NCBI GenBank assembly: GCA_031422675.1 | Contig: JANPMG010000002.1 | Location: 4,379 to 68,378 of the forward strand | DNA length: 64,000 bases | Reading direction: 5' to 3' | DNA from: Acidimicrobiia bacterium | GTDB lineage: Bacteria > Actinomycetota > Acidimicrobiia > IMCC26256 > JAENVU01 | Part shown: positions 50,180-62,886 of the stretch, piece after piece | Position numbering within the stretch: position 1 is the stretch's first letter | Layout: each line of letters opens with the position of its first letter | Notes under the pieces: generated by a model | The model's database searches: none | Seen by the model: only the letters and a program-made list of their open reading frames with translations | Told to the model about the DNA's origin: nothing | Program-made: the position numbers and the translations under genes

Positions 50180-50842
50180 GTGGCATTTCGGGTCGTCGTG
50201 GCCGAGGACAACTACCTCGTGCGGGAAGGCGTGGTGCGCCTCCTCGATGCGCAGCCGGAGATCGAAGTGGTCGGCGCGTACGAGGACTTCGACACGTTGC
50301 TCGCCGGCGTCGCCGCGGTGCAACCCGATGTCGTGATCACCGACATCCGGATGCCGCCCACCGGGACCGACGAGGGGGTCCGCGCCGCGAATGTACTCCG
50401 AGAGGAGTATCCCGGCATCGGGGTCGTGGTCCTCAGCCAGTACGTGGAACCGGCGTATGCCCTCGCGCTCCTGGAGTCCGGCTCGGATCGTCGTGCCTAC
50501 CTCTTGAAGGAACGGGTCTCGGACGTCGATCTGCTCATCCGCGCCATCGAGGCGGTGGCCGACGGCGGTTCGGTCATCGATCCTCAGGTGATCGACGCCC
50601 TGGTGGCCGCCCGATCTCGCCACCGATCGCCGCTCGATTTCCTCACGCCCCGTGAGGGCGAAGTCCTCACCGAGATGGCACTCGGTCGGAACAATGCCGG
50701 CATCGCCGGCGCACTTGGACTCTCGGAACGCGCAGTCGAGAAGCACATCAACGCGCTGTTCTCGAAGCTCGGCGTCTCGGAAGAGCCTGATGTCCACCGC
50801 CGCGTGAAAGCGGTGTTGCTGTGCCTTTCGGAGCAATCGTGA
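50180..50842 (+). CDS. NarL/LuxR-family response regulator
   Basis: GTG start. VVVAEDNYLVREGV...VVITDIRMPP and the LuxR HTH LTPREGEVLTEMALGRNNAGIAGALGLSERAVEKHI. Confidence 0.92.
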   Translation: MAFRVVVAEDNYLVREGVVRLLDAQPEIEVVGAYEDFDTLLAGVAAVQPDVVITDIRMPPTGTDEGVRAANVLREEYPGIGVVVLSQYVEPAYALALLESGSDRRAYLLKERVSDVDLLIRAIEAVADGGSVIDPQVIDALVAARSRHRSPLDFLTPREGEVLTEMALGRNNAGIAGALGLSERAVEKHINALFSKLGVSEEPDVHRRVKAVLLCLSEQS

Positions 50843-51357: not shown

Positions 51358-53511
51358 TCAGGCTTCCGGCAACGGGACGCGTCCACTGACCGTGGTGCCG
51401 CGACCGGGCGCGGATTCCACCTCGACCGAGCCGCCGAACGCACCGACCCGGTCGGCCATGTTGACGAAGCCGTGTCCGTGGGCGCCACCACCGGTCGAAT
51501 CGAACCCGGCGCCGGTGTCGCGCACGGCGAACAGCAACGCGCCCTGGTCCTCGCGGAGCGAAACCGTGATGTGGGCTTCGGCACCGGCGTACTTGCTCGC
51601 GTTCTGAAGCGCTTCGAGGCAACAGAAGTAGATCGCAGCCTCAACCGGTTGGGAGTAGCGGTCGACTCCCTCGGCCTCGACGCGGGTGGGGAGCGGGACC
51701 CGATCGCCGGCGGCCCGCAACGCATCGGGCAGACCGCGGTCCATGAGCAGCGGGGGATAGATGCCGTGCGCAAGATTGCGCAGTTCCTGCACCGCGTCCT
51801 GGAGGTCGCCGGCGATCTGGTCGAGCATCTCCTTGGTTGCGTCCGGATCCGAGTCGGCGAGTTGACGGGCCAGCCGGGTGCTGACCGCGAGTGCAACGAG
51901 ATGTTGCTGGGCGCCGTCGTGGAGATCCCGCTCGATGCGTCTCCGCTCGCGGTCGGTCGCCTCGACGATGCGGGCTCGGGAACGGCGGAGTTCGTCGGCT
52001 TGGCGTCGGACCTCGTCGAGCGAGTCCTGAAGGGCCGAGTCCAGTTTCAAGTTGTGAAGCGCGAGCCCGACCTGGCGGGCGAGCTCGGTGAGGGCACGAT
52101 CGTCCTCGTCGTCGAAGCCGGCCGCGCCGAGCGCGCGGGTCACCATGATCACGCCGAGGAGCTCGCCCGAGTTGGTCACGGGCGCGATCCGAATCGGAGG
52201 TTCGTCACCGTCGGGGAACGGCTCGAGGAACCTCGGCATCCACACCCGGATCCACGCCGGCCCGGACACCCCCGCGTGCGCGATAACGCCGAGTTCCTCG
52301 GGGCCGATCGGGAGCTGGGCGTGACCGCGGTCGGGGACCGATACCGATCGTTCCAACTGACCGCCGTTGCGGGTCCAGACTTCGGCCAGGTCGAGTCCCA
52401 TCGTCTTCTTCAGTGATTCGGCGAGTTGGAGAAGGAGTTCGTCGAGCGGGAGGGCGCGGGTGAGCCGGCTCCCGAAGGTCCGGATCACCTCGTCGGGAGC
52501 GTGCTGCTCGCCGTAGACCCGTCGATTCGCGTAGTCGCGGAGCCGTTCCCGCGCGGGGACCCACAGGAGCGCGGCGGTGGCGGCTCCGGCGATCGAGAGT
52601 CCGAGCACGCTGCGCTCGCCGGCGTCGAGCGAACGGCCGAGTACGGCGATCACTCCGAGGGTCACCACCCCGACAACCGCGGCGAGACCGCCAATGGTGA
52701 TGGTGCTCACGAGCAGCCGGTCGATGCGCACCGCGAGGGTTCGGTAGGCGCCGAGCGCGAGGGAGATCGGTACGAGAATCGTTGAAGCCACCGCCACCGC
52801 GAGGAGCGCTCTTGGCCAATGGACGACCGCATCGAGCAGCACCGCACCGGCGCTGATACCCGCGGCCGCGATGGTCGCCCAGGCCGGCCACTGCAACCGG
52901 GCGCGCTCAGCTTGGGTGCGCGCGCGTTGGCACCGACCCACGTAACCGACCACGCCGATGACCAACGCCGAAGCGGCGAGTCCGACGATTCCGGCCCACC
53001 GAAGATGGGGCCGGTCGACGAAGAGCCATCCGGCGACGACCGCGCCGACGAGATAGCCCGCCGCGGTCCAGGTTCGCCGGATTCGACTGTCGAGCCGGCC
53101 GTCGGGCAGTCCGAGGACGAGGTGAAGGCCGAGTGGCGCCAAAGCCGTGATCCCGATCACGCGTGCCAGCGCCACCGCCTCGTTGGATGGATGACGAGCA
53201 AACTCGGCGGCACCGAGCATGGCCAGGGCGATAGCGCCACCGACGAGCGTGAGGAGTCCCGCAAGGGGTTCGCCGGGCCGTTCGAAGCTCACCAGGAGGG
53301 CGGCGCCACACCAGGTGAGCGCGACCGCGAGTAATACGCCGCGCCCGGGTCCGAGGCGGGCATCGGTCGCGTCGAACGTGGCGACGATCGCGGCCGCGAT
53401 CGCCAAGACTGCGCCGAGCCGGACGAGCGTGGTTCTCCCGGTCGCGGAGTTCGAGGCCGGCGCCGGGTCTCGGAAGCTGGTGAGGTCGAGCGGCGTGTCG
53501 ATGCGGCTCAC
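51358..53511 (-). CDS. Polytopic membrane sensor histidine kinase (about 10 TM + GAF-like + HisKA_3 + HATPase)
   Basis: About 330 aa of TM helices, then a GAF-like segment (LDLAEVW...ELLGVIMVTR), the H-box RRRIERDLHDGAQQHL, and the ATPase region ALQNASKYAG...DTGAGFD...GHGFVNMADR. Confidence 0.9.
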   Translation of the reverse strand: MSRIDTPLDLTSFRDPAPASNSATGRTTLVRLGAVLAIAAAIVATFDATDARLGPGRGVLLAVALTWCGAALLVSFERPGEPLAGLLTLVGGAIALAMLGAAEFARHPSNEAVALARVIGITALAPLGLHLVLGLPDGRLDSRIRRTWTAAGYLVGAVVAGWLFVDRPHLRWAGIVGLAASALVIGVVGYVGRCQRARTQAERARLQWPAWATIAAAGISAGAVLLDAVVHWPRALLAVAVASTILVPISLALGAYRTLAVRIDRLLVSTITIGGLAAVVGVVTLGVIAVLGRSLDAGERSVLGLSIAGAATAALLWVPARERLRDYANRRVYGEQHAPDEVIRTFGSRLTRALPLDELLLQLAESLKKTMGLDLAEVWTRNGGQLERSVSVPDRGHAQLPIGPEELGVIAHAGVSGPAWIRVWMPRFLEPFPDGDEPPIRIAPVTNSGELLGVIMVTRALGAAGFDDEDDRALTELARQVGLALHNLKLDSALQDSLDEVRRQADELRRSRARIVEATDRERRRIERDLHDGAQQHLVALAVSTRLARQLADSDPDATKEMLDQIAGDLQDAVQELRNLAHGIYPPLLMDRGLPDALRAAGDRVPLPTRVEAEGVDRYSQPVEAAIYFCCLEALQNASKYAGAEAHITVSLREDQGALLFAVRDTGAGFDSTGGGAHGHGFVNMADRVGAFGGSVEVESAPGRGTTVSGRVPLPEA

Positions 53512-54325: not shown

Positions 54326-55633
54326 TCATGGTCCGAGTCCTTCGATGCGGAACGCGCGGACGGGGGTCTGGCGACCCTTCACGAGCTGCTCGCCGAGGTC
54401 GTCATGCGCCGGCACGGTCTCGAGCGCGTCGAGGGTCGACTTCGCGACGACAACACAGCCGGCCGGTCGAGCCAGATCCTGGAGTCGTTGCGCCAAGTTC
54501 ACCGTGTCGCCGACGAGCGTGTACTCGAGGTGCTCTTCGGATCCGAGCATCGCCGCGGCGACGAGACCGGTGGAGATTCCGATTCCGAGTCCGAACGGTG
54601 CGAGGCCGCGCTGCGCCCAGTCGCCATCGAGTTCGACCTGGGCGCGGATCATGGCGAGCGCAGCGTCGAGACCGCGCTGCGCGTGGCTCGGTTGAGGAAC
54701 GGGCGCACCGAAACATGCCATCACCGCGTCCCCGACGAACTGCATGACCGTGCCGTCACGGTCGAGGATCGCCCGGTTCATCGCGGCGCGATGTTCGTTG
54801 AGCTGGCCGGCGAGCGCGCTCGGGTCCGCCTGCTCGGCAATGGCCGAGTAACCGCGTACGTCCGACATCAACACCGTGACCGTCAACTCCTCGGTCTCGC
54901 CGATCCGGCCGCCCCCGGCGCGAACTTTCGCGGCGACGCCGGTCGGCAACGATCGACTCAGTGTCTCGCCCTGCTCTTCGCGATCGACGATCGCTTGGTG
55001 GAGGAGACGGAGCCGGCGCAACGCGCTGGATCCCCCTGTCCTGGCTTCCTCCGAGAGCTTGACGAACATCGCTTCCACCGCAGTTGCGATCGCGGCCGGC
55101 GTCGTGCGCTCCATTGCCGCGATGGCCTTGATCGGCTTGCCCTCGGCGACGAGTTGGAGCAGCCGATCCTGCTCTGCGCTGAGGCCGCTGTCCTGCGCGA
55201 CAGGCGAGACGATCGCGGCGACGATCTTGGGGTCGAGCAGCGATCCGCCCGCCGCGACTTCGCGCACACTCCGCGCGAGCTGGTCGCCCTCCGCGATGCT
55301 GTCCTTCAGAAGGTAGGCGTAGCCCGCGGCACCGTCGGACAGCAACGCCACCGCGTACTCGGGGTCGTCGTACTGGGACAGGACCACCACCCCCATGCCG
55401 GGGTGGCGGCGGCGCAGCTCCTTGGCCGCATCGATGCCCTCCTGCTGGAACGTCGGTGGCATCCGAATGTCGGTGACCAGGACCTGGGGCGCGGCGTCGG
55501 TTGCACCGGTCATCAGCGTTTCGTAGTCGCCGGCGACGCCGACGATCTCGATGTCGGATTCCATGGTCAGGAGCGCCCGCACGCCCTCCCGGACGATGAC
55601 GTTGTCGTCGGCGAGGAACACACGGATCGGCAC
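54326..55633 (-). CDS. Response regulator receiver + LuxR-like HTH + class III adenylate/guanylate cyclase fusion
   Basis: REC: IRVFLADDNVIVREGV...VLVTDIRMPP. HTH-like: LSAEQDRLLQLVAEGKPIKAIAA. Cyclase: VTVLMSDVRGYSA...MQFVGDAVMACFG...YTLVGDTVNLAQRL...VKGRQTPVRAF. I prefer the GTG 55633 start; the alternative, ATG 55789, adds 52 disordered residues. Confidence 0.85.
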   Translation of the reverse strand: MPIRVFLADDNVIVREGVRALLTMESDIEIVGVAGDYETLMTGATDAAPQVLVTDIRMPPTFQQEGIDAAKELRRRHPGMGVVVLSQYDDPEYAVALLSDGAAGYAYLLKDSIAEGDQLARSVREVAAGGSLLDPKIVAAIVSPVAQDSGLSAEQDRLLQLVAEGKPIKAIAAMERTTPAAIATAVEAMFVKLSEEARTGGSSALRRLRLLHQAIVDREEQGETLSRSLPTGVAAKVRAGGGRIGETEELTVTVLMSDVRGYSAIAEQADPSALAGQLNEHRAAMNRAILDRDGTVMQFVGDAVMACFGAPVPQPSHAQRGLDAALAMIRAQVELDGDWAQRGLAPFGLGIGISTGLVAAAMLGSEEHLEYTLVGDTVNLAQRLQDLARPAGCVVVAKSTLDALETVPAHDDLGEQLVKGRQTPVRAFRIEGLGP

Positions 55634-55787
55634 CCGATCAGCATTCCTGCTCGGCGCGGCCGGAGCAAGGTGGTTCGTGCCCGCATCCGTGGTGGGGCTA
55701 TCACCCCCACGATGTTGGGGCTTGCGCCCTCGATCGCGGGCCGGCTCGGCCGTACCGTGAGCTTCGCCGGCCCTGGAGGGAGACGAC

Positions 55788-56786
55788 ATGCGTATCGAGA
55801 GTTCGGTCACATCCGTTTCGTGGATCCCGTCCGAAGCCGTGAGCGGCTTGAACAGGGGAGCCTTCGAATCTGGGTTCACGCACTACGACAACCCCCCGCC
55901 GGAGCGGATCGCGAACCTCGCTGCGCTCGGTGACGCGGACGGGTTCCGGTTCGCCAACCGGCTCGCGGCGTGGATCGACGTCGACGCCGATGGCCGGATC
56001 GCGGACGCGGGTTACGCCGGTGGGGGTGTGATGGGGGCGACCACGATTCGTCTCGGTCCGAAAGCCGCGACGTTCGAAGCGGTTGCCCTCGATGATCTCC
56101 AGACTGATGTGGTCCGCCTCGGACACGCGGTGCGCTTCGTGCAGACGACGGGCGGCAGAACCGCGCTCCCGGCGCCGCGTCGCGTCAACCGGCCACCCTT
56201 CGTGCAGTTCCGGGCGCCGACGGTGTGGACCACGCTCGCGCTCACGATCCGCACCGACGGAACGACCGAACACGAGGTGGTGGGCGCGAGCAAGTTCCCG
56301 CGCCACTGGATCTATGACGCGCGCCTCGAGCTGGTGGAGAAGATCGGACTCGCGGACTTCAAGGGGTGGTACCGCAACTCGTTCGGGCGCAAGACGCCGT
56401 GGGGGAATGAGAACTCGCCGGCGCTGGTGACGGCGGTCGAGACGGCACTCGAGCGACGCCTCTCCACCACGATCATGCGCGGTGGCACGAAGCCCGACGT
56501 GCGGACGGTGAAGGCCGGTGCGACGCTGGTCAGACAGGGTGACCCCGGGGACGAGTTGTTCCTCGTCCTCGACGGCGTGCTGCGGGTCGATGTGGACGGT
56601 GTGGCCATCGGCGAACTCGGCCCGGGTGCGGTGCTCGGCGAGCGGGCCGTGCTCGAAGGGGGTACCCGAACCTCCACCTTGACCGCGGCGACGAAGTGTC
56701 GGATCGCGGCGGTGCCGGCGGATCTCCTGGACCGTGAGGCTCTCGAAGCCCTGCGCACCGGCCACCGCCGCGAGGCGAAGGATTGA
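55788..56786 (+). CDS. Protein with an N-terminal domain of about 235 aa (unknown function) and a C-terminal cyclic-nucleotide-binding (CAP/CNB) domain
   Basis: The C-terminus, VKAGATLVRQGDPGDELFLVLDGVLRVDVDG..IGELGPGAVLGERAVLEGGTRTSTLTAATKCRIAAV, matches the cNMP-binding beta-barrel with a phosphate-binding cassette. The N-terminal part has no motif I recognise. Confidence 0.8.
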   Translation: MRIESSVTSVSWIPSEAVSGLNRGAFESGFTHYDNPPPERIANLAALGDADGFRFANRLAAWIDVDADGRIADAGYAGGGVMGATTIRLGPKAATFEAVALDDLQTDVVRLGHAVRFVQTTGGRTALPAPRRVNRPPFVQFRAPTVWTTLALTIRTDGTTEHEVVGASKFPRHWIYDARLELVEKIGLADFKGWYRNSFGRKTPWGNENSPALVTAVETALERRLSTTIMRGGTKPDVRTVKAGATLVRQGDPGDELFLVLDGVLRVDVDGVAIGELGPGAVLGERAVLEGGTRTSTLTAATKCRIAAVPADLLDREALEALRTGHRREAKD

Positions 56787-56949
56787 CTCGACTCACTGAT
56801 CTCGACGAACCGTATGAATCGGATGAAACCCGATGAAAAGCTCTCCCCATAAATGGGGATATCGGCCTATCTAGTGCGTACAGCCCGAGACAGTTGGAAC
56901 CCGACAAACGTACTATCGACTCCTTCTTCGGGCGATAGGGAGTTTGTCA

Positions 56950-59900
56950 GTGGTTGGTACAGCACGTCGTCTCTTCGCGGCCTTCGCCGGTGCGACCGTC
57001 GTTCTCTCCGGGCTGGCGGGACTCGGACTGGCGGGACTCGGGCCGGTCGGAGTCGGGCCGGCCGGCGCGGCGCCGACCGCCGGGATTCCGTCATTGTCGC
57101 TGAATCGCGCGTACACCACGGCACCGTTCGCCGGTACTGCAACCGCCGCGTCGGGGCAGGAGGGTTCCGCCTTCGTCCCGGCCGACAACGCGGTGTGGTT
57201 GGCGGACCCCACTAAGGCGTACGAAGTGGACGCCACCACCGACGCGTTGCGGCGGGTCATCCCGACCGCGAACTTCACCAACGCGCTCCCGGTCGGGGGG
57301 GTCGGTGCACCCGCCGGCGCCAGCCGCAGTGATTCCTTCGCCGCGGTGGCGTACGACCCGAGCGCGGACGCGCTCTATGTGTTCTCGCGCAACTGTTGCA
57401 CCGCGCTCGGCCTGGACCCGACGGTGTTCCGCCTCCTGCGGGACGGCGGCGGCGCGTTCCAGGTCGAGTCGTATCAAGCCCTGCCCGCGGGTATCGACCC
57501 GAAGGGTGCCGGCTACCGCGCCGGCGTCGGCCTGTACTTCGGCAAGGGCGCCAAGATCCGGACGTACGACTACGCGACGAACGGCCTCGGCGCCGACATC
57601 ACCATCCCCGGCATCGATGCCGCCGTCGGCGGTATGGCGTTCTCGCCGGACGGCAACGACCTGTACCTCACCACGTTCGTGGCTGCGGTCAGTCCCAACC
57701 CGGCGAGCATCAAGCTCGTGCGAATCAACACCGCCACGTGGACGGTCGTGCCGAACTGGAATCTCGACCTGACGTCGTTCGGTGTCCTCGACCCCCGGGC
57801 GGTCGAGCTGGTGGGTGACCAGATCTACGTCTCCGACGGCGGTGCTCGTCCGGCCGGCGATCCGTTGCGGCGGGCCGTCTTCGTGTTCGACGTGTTGGAC
57901 CTGAGCGTCCAACCGACCGCATCCTTCAGCGCCACCCCGGTCGCGGGTCAGTTCCCGCTTCCGGTGCAGTTCAGCGACACGAGTCAGGGCGGTCCCACGA
58001 GTTGGGCATGGGACTTCGGCGACGGCGCCACGTCGAACCTCACGAACCCGACCCACACCTACGCCGTCGCCGGGAGCTACACGGTCACCTTGACTGTCAC
58101 GAACTCGAAGGGCACCGACACCTCGACCCGGACGGATCTCGTCACGGTCCAGGATCAGCTCCCGATCGCGGGCTTCACCGCCACCCCGACCACCGGCCAG
58201 TACCCGCTGGCGGTCGACTTCACCGACACGAGCGTCAAGCACCCGATCTCCTGGGCGTGGGACTTCGGCGACGGTTCGACGTCGACGGCGCAGAACCCGT
58301 CACACACCTACGCCAATCCCGGCAACTACGCCGTGTCGTTGACCGTCACCAACGGCACGGGCTCGAACACGCGCGTGCGCTCGGACTTCATCCACGCCGT
58401 CGCCGGTACCACCACGTTGACGCCCGTCGCGGACTCCTACGTGCGCTCGGACCAGGCCAACGCGAACTTCGGGACCCAGACCACGCTCCAGGCCCAGTTG
58501 AACTCAGCGTCGTACCAGCCGTTCGTCCGATTCGATGTTGGTTCACTTCCGCAGCAGCCCACCAGCGCGACGCTGCGATTGTTCGTCACCGACTCGGGTA
58601 CGACGACCGGGGTCCTGCGCCAGACCACCGCGACCTGGGGTGAGGCGGCCCTCACGTGGAACAACAAGCCGTCCACGACCGGGCCACAGATCGGGACCGC
58701 CGCGGTTCCGACTGCGGGGTCGTGGGTCGAACTCGACGTGAGTTCGGTGGTCACGACCGCGGGCGCGTACGGCTTCGTGCTGACGAACAACAGCTCGGAC
58801 CCGGTCGCCTATTCGAGCCGTCAGGGCGCAAATCCGCCCCAGCTGCGACTCACGTTCGCCACCGCGCCGACGACCAACCTCCCGAACCCGCCGAATGTCG
58901 GGCTGCGCCTCAACCGCGCGTTCACCACGTCGCCGTTCCGCGGCACCGCGACGTCGGCCCGTGACGAAGAAGGTTCGGCCTACGTCCCGTCCGACAACGC
59001 GCTGTGGCTCATGGACGACAACGCCGGTCGCATGTACGAGACCGATGCCACCACCGGTGATCTGCGCCGCGTGATCCCGACCGCCGACTTCACGAATGCC
59101 TTGCCGGTTGGCGGCGGTGCCGCAGCGGGACCGACGCGTACCGACGACCTCGAGTCGTTGTCCTATGACCCGACCACCGACACGCTCTACGTTGCAAGCG
59201 GCAACTGTTGCGGGGTCGCGCCGTTCAACCCCACGATCTTCGAACTGACTCGTGACGGCGCCGGCCGATTCCAGGTCAAAGACTTCAACGCGCTGCCCGA
59301 AGGCACTGATCCCACCGGCTCGGCGTGGCGCGCCGGTCCCGGCGGCGGGATCCACTTCGTCAAAGGTCAGAACATCACCCCGTACGACTTCGCCACCAAC
59401 ACGGTCGGGACCCCGATTCAGGTCCTGGGTGTGGATGTCGGGCTCGTGGGTGCAACGTTCACCCCCGACGGGCAAGATCTGCTGGTCACCAGTCACCTGA
59501 ACAAGCTCTACCGGGTGGACCCCTCCACGTGGAGCGTCGTCCCCGGCTGGTCCTTCGACCTGACGCCGTACGGCATCGTCGATCCGCGCGCGGTCGAGGT
59601 CGTCGGTGACCAGTTGTTCATCTCCGATGGGTACGACTCCCGCCCGGTGGGCGACCCACTCCGCTACGCGATCTTCGTGCTGGACATCGTCGACGGCTCG
59701 GACGCGCCGGTGGCTGGATTCACCGCGTCGCCCACCTCAGGCATTGCGCCCCACGTAACCACCTTCACCGATCGCAGCACCGGGGTCCCGACCGTGTGGC
59801 TGTGGAACTTCGGCGACGGCACTTCCTCCGTGGAGCAGAACCCGGCGCACTCCTACCGCGACGCGGGCACCTACAGCGTCACGCTGACGGTGACGAACTC

Positions 59901-62220
59901 CAAGGGCACCGCGACCACCACCCAGACGGACCTGGTGACGGTCGCCGTCAACCCGCCGCTCCTCAACGCGAAGTTCACCGGCACGCCGACCTCGGGGGTG
60001 GCCCCGCTGGCGGTCCAGTTCACCGATGCCAGCGTCGGCGGAGTCACCGCCTGGGCGTGGGACTTCGGTGACGGATCCACGGAGACGGTTCAGAATCCCA
60101 CGCACGTGTACGCCGCCAACGGCACGTACACGGTGAAGCTCACGGTCACGTCGGCGAGCGGCACGAACACCCGTATCCGTTCGAACTACGTGAACGTGGC
60201 CGCGGCACCCGTGACCCTCGCCGCCGCCGCCGATAGCTACGTGCGATCGAACGCGACCGGGTCGAACTTCGGTACCGAAGCCTCCGTCCAAGGTCAGAAC
60301 ACCGGTGGCCGGAACGCGGTCGTCTACCAGCCGTACTTCCGGTTCTCGGTAGGAAGCCTGCCCGCCGCGCCGACGAGTGCGAAGGTCCGCCTGTTCGTCA
60401 CCAACGCGAGCGCAACGAGCGGTCAGCTCTTCCGGACCGCCTCGGCCACCTGGTCCGAGACCGGGATCACGTGGAACAACCGGCCCGGAACCACGGGCGT
60501 GTCGCTCGGCGCAAGCCGCAACGCGCCGCTCGGCCAATGGGTCGAGTTCGACGTGAGTTCCACCGTCACCGGGCCCGGCCAGTACAGCTTCACGCTGACC
60601 AACTCGAGCAACGACCTGGTGGCGTACTCGAGTTGGCAGGGCGCGAATGCACCCCAGCTCGTGCTGAGTTTCCCGGCCCCGACGACGAGTGGGGGACTTC
60701 CCGCGCTCGCCACGCCGAGTCTGGCGTTGAGCCGCACGTTCACCGCCGCACCGTTCTCGAACACGAGCGTGCTCGCGCACGACCTCGAGGGTTCGGCCTA
60801 CGTTCCGGCCGACGACGCACTCTGGCTCTCGGACGACAACTGGGACCGCGCCTACGAAGTGGACGCGACCACGAGCATCCTGCGCCGCACGCTCGCCCGA
60901 TCGGACTTCTCCGAGGCGCTGCCGGTCGGTGGCGTGGGCGAGCCGGCCGGTCTCAGCCGGACCGACGATCTCGAGTCCATAGCGTATGACCCCGTCGGCG
61001 ATGTGCTGTACCAGTTCTCCGGGAACTGCTGTGGCGCGGGTCCGATGGATCCGACCGCGTTCCGCCTACTGCGCGACATCGACGGCAACTTCCAGGTGGA
61101 GTCGTACCAACCGTTGCCCGAGGGGACCGACCCGACCGGCGCGGGATGGCGTCCCGGAAGTGGCCTGTTCTTCACCCACGGCGGCGGTGTCGCCGACTAC
61201 GACTACGCGTCCAACACCGTCGGCGCCACCAACCTCGTGACGGGCGTCAACGGCGGCATGGCCGGCGTGACCTTCACGCCCGACGGCACACAGATGATCG
61301 TCGTCACCACGACCGATCGGTTGCAGGTGATCGACGTCGCGACGTGGACCGTGATGCCGGGGCTCGACTTCGATCTCGCGCCCCACGGAGTGGTCGACCC
61401 TCGGGCCGTGGAACTCGTGGACGGCCAACTCTTCGTCTCCGATGGCGACGACCTCCGCTCGCCCGAGGATCCGCTGGAGTACGCCGTCTTCGTCTTCGAC
61501 CTGGCCGAGGCCCCACCCTCGCCGGAGTTCACCGCCACGCCCACCTCCGGTGCCGCACCGCTGACGGTGCAGTTCACGGACGCGACCATCGGTGTCGCGA
61601 CCGGTCGGATCTGGGACTTCGGTGACGGCACGAGGTCGATCGCGACGAACCCGTCGCACGTGTACACGTCGGTCGGTCAGTACACCGTGTCACTGGTGGC
61701 GGCGAACGCGAACGGTTCGAACACCGTGACCAAGCCGAATCTGATCAGGACGACGTTCGCTCCAGTGACCACGACTGCGGTGGCGGACAGTTACGTGCGC
61801 TCGGACCGGTCCAGCTCGAACTTCGGCACGGCCACCACGATGCAGGGCTACCGGAAGGGCGGCACCACGTACGAGCCGTACTTCCGGTTCTCGGTCGGCG
61901 CGTTGCCTGCAGCACCGGTCACGGCCAAGGTCCGGCTCTTCGTGACGGACTCGAGCAATGTGACGGGTTCGCTCTATCGGTCGGCGAACACTACGTGGAC
62001 CGAGACCGGAATCACGTGGAACACGCGACCCGGCACGATTGGCGCAGCGCTGAGCGCGAGCAAGAACGCGCCACTCGGCCAGTGGGTGGAGTTCGACGTG
62101 ACGACGACGGCCACCGCCGCCGGTGAATACAGCTTCACCCTCACCGGTGCCGGCACCAACCGGGTGGCGTTCTCGAGCCGCCAGGGTGCCAACGGGCCGC
62201 AGCTCGTCCTCGGTTTCTGA
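56950..62220 (+). CDS. Giant secreted protein: 3 x [beta-rich module + PKD domain(s) + DNRLRE-like carbohydrate-binding-type domain]
   Basis: GTG 56950 follows the RBS agggag; the ORF track starts at TTG 56944. The N-terminus is signal-like. PKD signatures (WDFGDG..S....P.H.Y...G.Y.V.L.V.N) occur 5 times. DSYVRS...NFG...Y.P.FRF.V.SLP......A.LRLFVT........TW.E..ITWN..P domains occur 3 times. Confidence 0.9.
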   Translation: MVGTARRLFAAFAGATVVLSGLAGLGLAGLGPVGVGPAGAAPTAGIPSLSLNRAYTTAPFAGTATAASGQEGSAFVPADNAVWLADPTKAYEVDATTDALRRVIPTANFTNALPVGGVGAPAGASRSDSFAAVAYDPSADALYVFSRNCCTALGLDPTVFRLLRDGGGAFQVESYQALPAGIDPKGAGYRAGVGLYFGKGAKIRTYDYATNGLGADITIPGIDAAVGGMAFSPDGNDLYLTTFVAAVSPNPASIKLVRINTATWTVVPNWNLDLTSFGVLDPRAVELVGDQIYVSDGGARPAGDPLRRAVFVFDVLDLSVQPTASFSATPVAGQFPLPVQFSDTSQGGPTSWAWDFGDGATSNLTNPTHTYAVAGSYTVTLTVTNSKGTDTSTRTDLVTVQDQLPIAGFTATPTTGQYPLAVDFTDTSVKHPISWAWDFGDGSTSTAQNPSHTYANPGNYAVSLTVTNGTGSNTRVRSDFIHAVAGTTTLTPVADSYVRSDQANANFGTQTTLQAQLNSASYQPFVRFDVGSLPQQPTSATLRLFVTDSGTTTGVLRQTTATWGEAALTWNNKPSTTGPQIGTAAVPTAGSWVELDVSSVVTTAGAYGFVLTNNSSDPVAYSSRQGANPPQLRLTFATAPTTNLPNPPNVGLRLNRAFTTSPFRGTATSARDEEGSAYVPSDNALWLMDDNAGRMYETDATTGDLRRVIPTADFTNALPVGGGAAAGPTRTDDLESLSYDPTTDTLYVASGNCCGVAPFNPTIFELTRDGAGRFQVKDFNALPEGTDPTGSAWRAGPGGGIHFVKGQNITPYDFATNTVGTPIQVLGVDVGLVGATFTPDGQDLLVTSHLNKLYRVDPSTWSVVPGWSFDLTPYGIVDPRAVEVVGDQLFISDGYDSRPVGDPLRYAIFVLDIVDGSDAPVAGFTASPTSGIAPHVTTFTDRSTGVPTVWLWNFGDGTSSVEQNPAHSYRDAGTYSVTLTVTNSKGTATTTQTDLVTVAVNPPLLNAKFTGTPTSGVAPLAVQFTDASVGGVTAWAWDFGDGSTETVQNPTHVYAANGTYTVKLTVTSASGTNTRIRSNYVNVAAAPVTLAAAADSYVRSNATGSNFGTEASVQGQNTGGRNAVVYQPYFRFSVGSLPAAPTSAKVRLFVTNASATSGQLFRTASATWSETGITWNNRPGTTGVSLGASRNAPLGQWVEFDVSSTVTGPGQYSFTLTNSSNDLVAYSSWQGANAPQLVLSFPAPTTSGGLPALATPSLALSRTFTAAPFSNTSVLAHDLEGSAYVPADDALWLSDDNWDRAYEVDATTSILRRTLARSDFSEALPVGGVGEPAGLSRTDDLESIAYDPVGDVLYQFSGNCCGAGPMDPTAFRLLRDIDGNFQVESYQPLPEGTDPTGAGWRPGSGLFFTHGGGVADYDYASNTVGATNLVTGVNGGMAGVTFTPDGTQMIVVTTTDRLQVIDVATWTVMPGLDFDLAPHGVVDPRAVELVDGQLFVSDGDDLRSPEDPLEYAVFVFDLAEAPPSPEFTATPTSGAAPLTVQFTDATIGVATGRIWDFGDGTRSIATNPSHVYTSVGQYTVSLVAANANGSNTVTKPNLIRTTFAPVTTTAVADSYVRSDRSSSNFGTATTMQGYRKGGTTYEPYFRFSVGALPAAPVTAKVRLFVTDSSNVTGSLYRSANTTWTETGITWNTRPGTIGAALSASKNAPLGQWVEFDVTTTATAAGEYSFTLTGAGTNRVAFSSRQGANGPQLVLGF
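57100..62217 (+). repeat. Three tandem intragenic modules (about 1809, 1818 and 1491 nt)
   Basis: The modules start at LNRAYTTAPF (57100), LNRAFTTSPF (58909) and LSRTFTAAPF (60727). By eye they are about 50% identical at the protein level. The third lacks one PKD domain. Confidence 0.85.
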
Positions 62221-62238
62221 GTCCGTCTCGCGCGCGCG

Positions 62239-62272
62239 GTCGGGAGCCGGTCCTTCGGGACCGGCTCCCGAC
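62239..62272 (+). terminator. Strong hairpin terminator after the giant gene
   Basis: gtcgggagccggtcc-ttcg-ggaccggctcccgac, a 15-bp perfect stem with a UUCG tetraloop, 19 nt after the stop. Confidence 0.7.
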
Positions 62273-62280
62273 TCGCACTC

Positions 62281-62886
62281 ATGGCGCTCGCCGATACGAT
62301 CGTTGCCGTGGCGCGCGCAACCTTCCCCATCACCGGTGATGCCGAGGCCGATCAGCTGCTCGTGGATGATCCACTCGCGCTGTTGATCGGCATGCTCCTC
62401 GATCAACAAGTGCCGATGGAATGGGCGTTCCGGGGTCCCGCGCGATTGAAGGAACGACTCGGTGCCCTCGATGCCGGCGCGATCAGTGCCATGGCGCCCG
62501 AGGAGATCGACGCCGTCTTTCGCGAGAAGCCGGCCCTCCACCGGTTTCCCTCGGCGATGGCCAAGCGTACGCACGCGCTCTGTGCCCACATCGTCGCCGA
62601 GTACCACGGGAAGCCGGCCAAGATCTGGCAGCGCACCAAGGACCCCGAGGTCGTTTTCGAGCGCATCCGCGCTCTGCCGGGCTACGGCGACGAGAAGGCG
62701 AAGATCTTCCTGGCCATCCTGGGCAAACGCCTCGGAGTGGCGCCGGCGGGCTGGGAACGCTGCGCCGGGCCCTTCGGTGATGCCTCGCCCCGTTCGGTTG
62801 CCGACATCGATTCGGCGGAGGCCTTCGCCCGAGTGCGGGCCTGGAAGAAGGAACAGAAGGCCAAAGGAAAATCGAAGGCCCAGTAG
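62281..62886 (+). CDS. HhH-GPD-type base-excision DNA repair family protein
   Basis: DPLALLIGMLLDQQVPMEWAF.GP..L..RLG...ALHRFP..MAKR...LPGYGDEKAKIFLAILGKRLG, with a Lys-rich tail. Confidence 0.75.
   Translation: MALADTIVAVARATFPITGDAEADQLLVDDPLALLIGMLLDQQVPMEWAFRGPARLKERLGALDAGAISAMAPEEIDAVFREKPALHRFPSAMAKRTHALCAHIVAEYHGKPAKIWQRTKDPEVVFERIRALPGYGDEKAKIFLAILGKRLGVAPAGWERCAGPFGDASPRSVADIDSAEAFARVRAWKKEQKAKGKSKAQ

Follow-up and report, generated by a model that had tools for sequence, protein, structure and literature searches.

The stretch of DNA analyzed here (the window) comprises 64,000 nucleotides (nt) of contig JANPMG010000002.1 from an Acidimicrobiia bacterium, and its forward strand carries, at positions 56950..62220, the coding sequence of a large exported protein built from three tandem, diverged units. 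According to the list of open reading frames (ORFs) and the translation, an uninterrupted ORF extends from 56944 to 62220. The likely start is the GTG codon at 56950, which is found 7 nt after the Shine-Dalgarno-like motif AGGGAG (56937..56942, + strand); the orthologue P0029, which is 78% identical, starts at the equivalent residue. The product consists of 1756 amino acids, followed by the stop codon. Intact frame, putative ribosome-binding motif, and orthologous start agree with the single 1756-amino acid ORF of a preliminary description made from the nucleotide sequence. The product is probably a modular secreted glycan-targeting protein and, as such, of a known kind; its heads belong to an uncharacterized propeller family and have diverged from one another within one chain.

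Each unit is composed of a beta-rich module of ~270 amino acids, the head, followed by PKD domains (two in units 1 and 2, one in unit 3) and by a CBM96/DNRLRE domain, all encoded on the + strand. In unit 1, head 1 (57088..57909, based on module alignment and residue table) precedes the PKD domains 1a (57922..58149; PF18911, E 6e-23) and 1b (58171..58386; PF18911, E 9e-21) and the CBM96/DNRLRE domain 1 (58408..58854; PF24517, E 4e-35; NF033679). Unit 2 contains head 2 (58897..59703, based on the AlphaFold model and conservation), the PKD domains 2a (59704..59943; PF18911, E 1e-19) and 2b (59956..60195; PF18911, E 2e-21), and the CBM96/DNRLRE domain 2 (60208..60669; PF24517, E 4e-31). Unit 3 is made up of head 3 (60715..61518, again from module alignment and residue table), its sole PKD domain (61516..61734; PF00801 and PF18911, E ~2e-14), and the CBM96/DNRLRE domain 3 (61765..62211; PF24517, E 1e-30). 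The module edges are placed 12 nt earlier than the unit starts of the preliminary description (57100, 58909, and 60727), with which they otherwise agree. A paralogue search revealed no further propeller copy elsewhere in the 64-kb window.

The assignment of the accessory domains is firm. Pfam returns five PKD and three CBM96 domains, and NCBIfam returns three DNRLRE domains. The CBM96 domains score 107-122 bits each against a PF24517 cut-off of 26 and cover profile positions 2-163 of 164; NF033679 is matched with 194 bits in three stretches (cut-off 34), so that the DNRLRE-like domains read from the sequence beforehand exceed the thresholds of both models by far. The five PKD domains (PF18911/PF00801) reach 53-81 bits each at a cut-off of 27. 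Pairwise identity at the protein level (BLASTP) amounts to 50-58% for whole units and to 52-55% for the beta-rich modules (E 1e-96 to 1e-103), in line with the ~50% estimated by eye, while the DNA identity between the modules is 64-70%. The motif NCC is found at amino acids 150, 754, and 1361, and PVGG, DPRAVE, and DSYVRS likewise occur in all three copies. The only cysteines of the whole protein are six residues forming three vicinal pairs (CC) at the same position of each module.

Export is suggested by the N-terminal ~40 amino acids (56950..57069, + strand), which read in the translation as a signal peptide: they contain the twin-arginine motif TARRLFAAF and a hydrophobic core rich in Gly and Ala, and cleavage probably takes place at A-G-A; this is consistent with the secretion proposed in the preliminary description. 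The consensus of signal peptides of the twin-arginine translocation (Tat) pathway is S/T-R-R-x-F-L-K. The RRxF motif recurs in P0029, P0001, and L003, and the arginine pair is not present in the signal peptide of every single-head relative. The 1756-amino acid protein may be a Tat substrate, which would be an unusually large one. As read from the translation, the C-terminus coincides with the end of the last CBM96 domain, and no sortase signal, cell-wall anchor, SLH domain, or C-terminal transmembrane segment is found in the translated protein.

The beta-rich modules of the window have no match in Pfam or NCBIfam. An AlphaFold2 model of head 2 based on the family alignment reached a predicted local distance difference test (pLDDT) score of 94.6 and a predicted template modeling (pTM) score of 0.92. 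The DSSP string of this model contains ~20 strands, which group as five four-stranded blades (24-60, 85-132, 141-177, 183-221, and 230-265, the last being closed by the N-terminal strand 2-9); by this string alone, the module appears to be a five-bladed beta-propeller. Comparison with the PDB by Foldseek yielded generic propellers only, with template modeling (TM) scores of 0.45-0.60; the top matches were the DrSOD propeller (9M58/9M59), luciferin-regenerating enzyme (LRE), and SMP30 (E 5e-10 to 7e-9). The best fold matches overall were obtained in a comparison with predicted viral structures (BFVD). They are the phage proteins A0A6J5SCA5, whose annotation is baseplate wedge subunit, and A0A6J5NPF0, A0A0F7LB88, and A0A3G2YRG7, which are uncharacterized (TM 0.66-0.69, root mean square deviation 3.7-4.0 Å). 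With predicted structures on both sides, this likeness suggests an equal number of blades, whereas identity is 10-14% and the phage propeller is embedded in virion proteins. Proteins of the phage tail or baseplate type typically recognize or degrade surface glycans, and the fold may be one that phage tail proteins and bacterial exoproteins have in common for glycan recognition.

For the sequence search against the PDB, three profiles of differing breadth were used. The top matches of the three-module profile were rejected as artefacts, being designed WD40 repeats that match the single blade motif FSPDGQ repeatedly. With the broader profiles, only 1L0Q, the YVTN propeller plus PKD domain of a Methanosarcina mazei surface-layer protein, was significant (E 4e-11 and 1e-10), the rest being insignificant. 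As in the window protein, the propeller of 1L0Q leads straight into a PKD domain, and both proteins are prokaryotic and exported; 1L0Q, however, contains neither CBM96 nor an acidic pentad such as that described below, and the match is confined to blades 3-4 of the module. The seven blades of 1L0Q are formed from the repeated YVTN motif.

The preliminary description had guessed at phytase-like or SdiA-regulated (YjiK-like) propellers, a guess that stands for the fold class and for a weak family resemblance but not for the window modules themselves, which match neither PF13449 nor PF06977. Among 20 relatives, 14 give sub-threshold matches to PF13449 (best E 6e-6), and the precomputed matches are graded faint; neither the full protein at E<=1 nor module 2 alone matches this model. 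PF06977 is passed by the distant family member P0061 (54 bits) and by no other member. When family profiles were compared by hhalign with YjiK of E. coli K-12, a probability of 17-18% was obtained over 78 and 35 columns, covering part of the propeller only, and the YjiK structure 3QQZ gave an insignificant E of 0.34 in hmmsearch. Since homology with YjiK could not be demonstrated, the module is treated as an unnamed family of the broad propeller clan; for PF13449 and PF06977/YjiK, too, there is no established function. The SGL model of Pfam (PF08450) is marginally matched by five of the 20 members (best E 0.009). With five blades according to DSSP, TM scores of 0.5-0.6, and SGL E values of at least 0.009, the module does not belong to the SGL/SMP30 family. 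Hence, in the Pfam, NCBIfam, and PDB searches, the modules matched no well-characterized enzyme family, a result that, had it been otherwise, the preliminary description would have counted against itself.

An exhaustive profile search over 1.84 billion cluster representatives detected 1303 family representatives with E<=1e-3, 177 of them with E<=1e-30, while a word-indexed search had detected only 28 relatives. All three window modules are full-length matches to the family profile. The family is found mostly in soil Actinomycetota. Its propeller nearly always occurs once per protein, located directly behind the signal peptide and followed by variable tails; standalone forms of ~300 amino acids are common. 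Of 57 longer members, 38 carry PKD, 14 CBM96, and six CBM4_9 domains. The remaining tails consist of Ig-like, cadherin-like, RTX, or FG-GAP domains, and hardly any member has a further known catalytic domain. This order of signal peptide, propeller, and PKD or CBM domains, almost without any other catalytic domain, argues for a layout in which a catalytic or recognition head is equipped with carbohydrate-binding tails. Ten family representatives were without a name or labeled "hypothetical protein" in the source databases, and in the literature searched on the phytase-like (PF13449) and SdiA-regulated/YjiK propellers and on CBM96/DNRLRE, nothing was found on the function of the propeller. The analysis thus delimits a sizeable propeller family that is modeled by neither Pfam nor NCBIfam, lacks a solved structure, and bears no informative name.

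Conservation was analyzed on an alignment of 100 full-length domains whose source representatives share less than 50% identity with each other. The most conserved polar residues are the acidic amino acids D23, E25, D41, D84, and E86 (93-97% each), and the complete pentad DEDDE is present in 90 of the 100 domains. W37, Y90, R119, Y163, N168, D229, R231, D244, and G245 are conserved to at least 91%; D91 and D95 are also highly conserved. The CC pair is found in ~74% of the family domains, and PVGG and DATT are lineage-specific; several of the motifs that had been called invariant are thus present in all three copies of the window protein without being so in the family. According to the DSSP topology, D23/E25, D84/E86, and D229/R231 mark the N-terminal end of the innermost strand in blades 1, 2, and 5, respectively, and D41, the CC pair, and D244/G245 are part of B-C loops; a conserved long loop (61-84) links blade 1 to blade 2. 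In the model, the conserved residues would lie on that face on which propeller enzymes carry their active site.

The three heads of the window protein are not equal. In head 1, the pentad positions are occupied by G23, E25, P41, S84, and A86, leaving one of the five residues, and the orthologues of head 1 show the same losses. Heads 2 and 3 retain all five pentad residues. In head 2, these are encoded by the codons at 58963-65 (D23), 58969-71 (E25), 59017-19 (D41), 59146-48 (D84), and 59152-54 (E86), with the CC pair at 59206-59211 (+ strand) and the replacements R116E and Q131N. Head 3 is the only fully canonical one; at 35 family-conserved positions it matches the consensus except for position 54 (S for G). 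Throughout the sample, first heads of three-headed proteins are the only domains in which three or more of the pentad residues are missing. Instead of the three functional sites assumed in the preliminary description, the chain would contain two canonical pentad sites and one divergent head. Head 1 is nevertheless strongly conserved: its identity to the counterpart in P0029 is 86% (head 2, 87%; head 3, 81%), and that in L003 is 76%, versus 60-61% for heads 2 and 3. Having lost the acidic site while being so conserved, head 1 is probably a noncatalytic or re-specialized binding head. The simplest reading of these sequence data would be that one head, once the internal duplication had taken place, escaped the ancestral constraint and acquired another role that is still under selection.

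The triplication is older than the divergence of the lineages in which it is found; the preliminary description had called it old and maintained. The same three-unit gene is present in at least five other metagenomic genomes or contigs, and three-unit orthologues are 55-84% identical. A scan performed with one genome per species revealed syntenic orthologues in metagenome-assembled genomes (MAGs) of Acidimicrobiia. The entire neighborhood is shared by L002 and L003 at 48-79% protein identity, L001 is only partial, and L007 represents a more distant copy of 1604 amino acids from Actinomycetota. A neighbor-joining tree of the propeller modules groups the first modules according to position and not to genome (bootstrap 100), and the third modules likewise (bootstrap 85), which, together with the three-unit genes of the other genomes, shows that the triplication is old; module 2 of L003/L001 falls into the module-1 clade, apart from module 2 of the window. 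In the 1604-amino acid protein P0030 (L007, 7983-12797), unit 1 is without CBM96 and the first head without the CC pair and most of the pentad, which is read as further degeneration. In L009 (7827-16437), three separate tandem genes encode proteins of 767, 959, and 998 amino acids with one N-terminal propeller each, and these propellers form one cluster in the tree (bootstrap 100). Since this array clusters by itself, the head has been multiplied more than once, in one case within a fused protein and in the other as an array of genes.

Assemblers can, in principle, collapse or expand repeated units, and in two MFD-series MAGs, L002 (9915-10705) and L091 (5731-10990), the orthologous gene is split by frameshifts into two or three ORFs, so that an assembly artefact or a decaying repeat pseudogene has to be considered. 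This explanation is, however, extremely improbable. The units are only 64-70% identical in DNA, which is too low to mislead an assembler; the frame is open over 5.3 kb; and three-unit ORFs are intact in P0029 (1744 amino acids), L003 (1769), and P0030. Misassembly of the repeats, which the preliminary description had named as a possible refutation, is not borne out, and the frameshifts in L002 and L091 are probably sequencing or assembly errors and not signs of pseudogenes, because close relatives are intact.

For the function of the protein, the carbohydrate-binding tails give the first indication. The CBM96 family was founded on the alginate-binding module TM6-N4 of the Defluviitalea alginate lyase Dp0100, which has a basic groove with Lys27 and Arg36, and DNRLRE domains are known from alginate, hyaluronate, and pectate lyases as well as from disaggregatase (PMC9971899). 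Because CBM96 binds alginate and DNRLRE domains are found in such lyases, an acidic polysaccharide is the most plausible target; a glycan as target is also indicated by the CBM4_9 tails of sister proteins. Both the window protein and the disaggregatase contain three CBM96/DNRLRE copies, but in the window protein each copy is paired with its own propeller, whereas the copies of the disaggregatase form a C-terminal triplet behind a single catalytic domain. In the disaggregatase of Methanosarcina, the DNRLRE domain is repeated three times.

Concerning the heads, the nearest parallel is provided by the SGL-type hydrolases (SMP30/gluconolactonase/LRE, DFPase, DrSOD), whose acidic, metal-type site is situated at the mouth of the central channel, as is proposed for the pentad of the module. 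The SGL/SMP30 lactonases bind Ca2+ through Glu/Asn/Asn/Asp ligands in the central tunnel. They differ from the module in having six blades instead of apparently five, at TM scores of 0.5-0.6 and identities of 11-21%. The DrSOD propeller of 9M58/9M59, in particular, is of the six-bladed, Ca-dependent SGL type (PMC12362111).

From these observations, a tentative picture emerges, which is the favored one even though it is held with somewhat less than even confidence. The gene product would be an exported, non-anchored, three-headed protein that acts on an extracellular, likely acidic, polysaccharide, possibly as a Ca-dependent enzyme. Its three CBM96 modules would dock the protein with avidity on the polymer, most likely an acidic, uronate-containing exopolysaccharide or a cell-envelope glycan. 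Each propeller would provide one site at the mouth of the central channel, formed by the pentad D23, E25, D41, D84, and E86 together with the conserved Arg, Tyr, and Asn residues; the majority of members would have a vicinal CC loop close to it. This site would most likely bind Ca2+ and cleave or modify the polymer by hydrolase, lyase, or esterase activity. The pentad sites of heads 2 and 3 would be the active ones, while head 1 would probably bind noncatalytically or with a new specificity. Architecture, fold, family, conservation pattern, and age of the triplication are established by the data; the glycan target, Ca2+ binding, catalysis by the heads, and the role of head 1 are inferred from them. 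Less probable than this general picture, and on the doubtful side, is its more specific version, according to which the propeller is the catalytic domain of an unrecognized family of extracellular enzymes, such as polysaccharide lyases, hydrolases, or esterases, with a Ca-binding pentad next to a vicinal-disulfide loop, so that two active heads would be combined with one pseudo-enzyme head that lost its catalytic duty once the internal duplication had occurred and came to serve for binding.

Several points weigh against an enzymatic role on a glycan. No activity, ligand, or metal is on record for any family member, and the window modules match no enzyme family of Pfam or NCBIfam at the sequence level. 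Three copies of one catalytic domain per chain are unusual for enzymes and more common in adhesins. Being absent from about a quarter of the members, the CC pair is not essential, and it is from a secondary-structure string only that the placement of the pentad on one face and the number of five blades are derived. The gene neighborhoods are mostly uninformative, those of eleven annotated loci being heterogeneous. In a scan of soil metagenomes, in which all ORFs rich in G or C at third codon positions (GC3) of 80 loci (L094-L173) were clustered, the standalone clade was found to neighbor the housekeeping genes pdxS, pdxT, yebC, htpX, lemA, and GT4, each at ~10-17 loci.

The main rival takes up part of these points. 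The protein could be a noncatalytic adhesin, a matrix-binding protein, or an S-layer-like protein, in which the propellers bind a ligand, the PKD domains form a stalk, and the CBM96 domains tether the molecule to the cell's own glycan or to the surface of a substrate. Its closest solved structure by sequence, 1L0Q, is derived from a surface-layer protein; Ig-like, cadherin-like, RTX, and FG-GAP tails are typical of surface proteins, as is the tandem repetition of identical units of adhesins; and the conserved head 1 without acidic site implies that at least one head works without it. Against this stands the absence from the translated protein of all the wall and membrane attachment signals named above. 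Moreover, the blades are not sequence repeats, and the conserved polar residues, which come from different blades, form one asymmetric, mostly acidic set that is kept in 90% of a very diverse family. Such a pattern is characteristic of catalytic or metal sites more than of lectin propellers, in which one site recurs in every blade. Taken together, an adhesive or structural role is possible but rather unlikely, about as much so as the specific enzyme model with its two active heads. The weaker rival, a phytase-like extracellular phosphoesterase that would scavenge organic phosphate from teichoic-acid-like glycopolymers, phosphoglycans, or extracellular DNA, is improbable. It could draw on the weak matches of 14 of the 20 relatives to PF13449 ("esterase-like activity of phytase"), and a metallophosphoesterase of Nodularia is encoded next to a PF13449 protein with the annotation atypical alkaline phosphatase, phosphorus limitation inducing both (PMC9846622). 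In addition, a family member in L081 overlaps a Metallophos gene, a Metallophos-PKD gene is found nearby in L085, and a third member is located ~5.7 kb from a Phosphodiest gene. The resemblance to PF13449 is, however, sub-threshold and does not extend to the window modules, no biochemistry behind the name of that model was found in the literature searched, and the window provides no Pho-type context; the CBM96 and CBM4_9 partners point to glycans instead. The reading as a glycan-acting, possibly Ca-dependent enzyme with unequal heads is retained as the favored one.

Two independent contexts connect family members with polysaccharide synthesis. In L082 (6675-12036), a Wzy_C gene is located directly upstream of a single-head gene and a GINT1_N/GH43-like gene downstream of it; farther downstream, within ~5 kb, follow a gene for UDP-glucose dehydrogenase and a fragment of Bac_transf. 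Of these genes, the related locus L083 has only the Bac_transf fragment and the GINT1_N/GH43-like gene. In L085 (959-10059), a single-head gene is found near genes for UDP-glucose dehydrogenase and an NDP-sugar epimerase/dehydratase. The standalone gene of ~300 amino acids, for its part, is divergent from pdxS at 17 of the soil loci and convergent with an htpX-like protease gene at 16, and it is apparently monocistronic.

In the window, the gene is preceded by signaling genes encoding a LuxR-type response regulator (50180-50842, + strand), a GAF-HisKA_3 histidine kinase (51358-53511, - strand), a divergent receiver-adenylate/guanylate cyclase (54326-55879, - strand), and a cyclic nucleoside monophosphate (cNMP)-binding protein (55788-56786, + strand). 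The annotated 5' ends of the cyclase and cNMP-binding ORFs overlap by ~90 nt on opposite strands. The signaling cassette is retained in L002 and L003 but missing at the orthologous position in L091, where the orthologue is preceded by an FAD oxidoreductase gene and a PhyH gene, and L007 yielded no homologue for any of the flanking genes. A functional coupling to the cNMP locus, as suggested by the adjacency noted in the preliminary description, was rejected as unsupported for these reasons; the gene adjoins the cassette here, yet there is no conserved link to cNMP signaling. In the leader region of 163 nt, no sigma-70-type promoter was found, nor was any riboswitch or leader RNA detected upstream, Rfam giving only a sub-threshold Mg-II match inside the upstream coding region.

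The stop codon is followed, after 18 nt, by a GC-rich hairpin (62238..62273, + strand) with a perfect 16-bp stem and a UUCG loop. The 70-nt segment containing it (62221-62290) folds with -47.8 kcal/mol (z = -5.7). A strong hairpin of differing sequence is found at the same position in the orthologous loci L001, L002, and L091, which argues that it is functional, be it as a terminator or as an mRNA-stabilizing element. The ATG codon of an HhH-GPD glycosylase gene (62281-62886, + strand, downstream) follows only 8 nt beyond the 3' end of the hairpin, and the order of the large gene and the HhH-GPD gene is kept in L001, L002, L003, and L091. In view of this close and conserved arrangement, the hairpin may attenuate or stabilize the transcript instead of fully terminating it. 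The "very strong terminator" of the preliminary description is, thus, a strong hairpin indeed, albeit one that has no U-tract and may serve either of these purposes.

Summarizing, secreted modular proteins of uncultured soil Actinomycetota constitute a large reservoir of unknown carbohydrate-active functions, from which the present analysis singles out a target for annotation and biochemistry without overturning anything known. A family of ~1300 cluster representatives gains a testable signature, which consists of the acidic pentad, the set of Arg, Tyr, and Asn residues, and the vicinal Cys pair. With two canonical heads and one degenerate head in the same chain, the window protein represents a natural experiment. 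If the heads are catalytic, it would stand for a new enzyme family and for an example of a pseudo-enzyme that arose by internal duplication; if they only bind, it would represent a new type of multivalent glycan adhesin.

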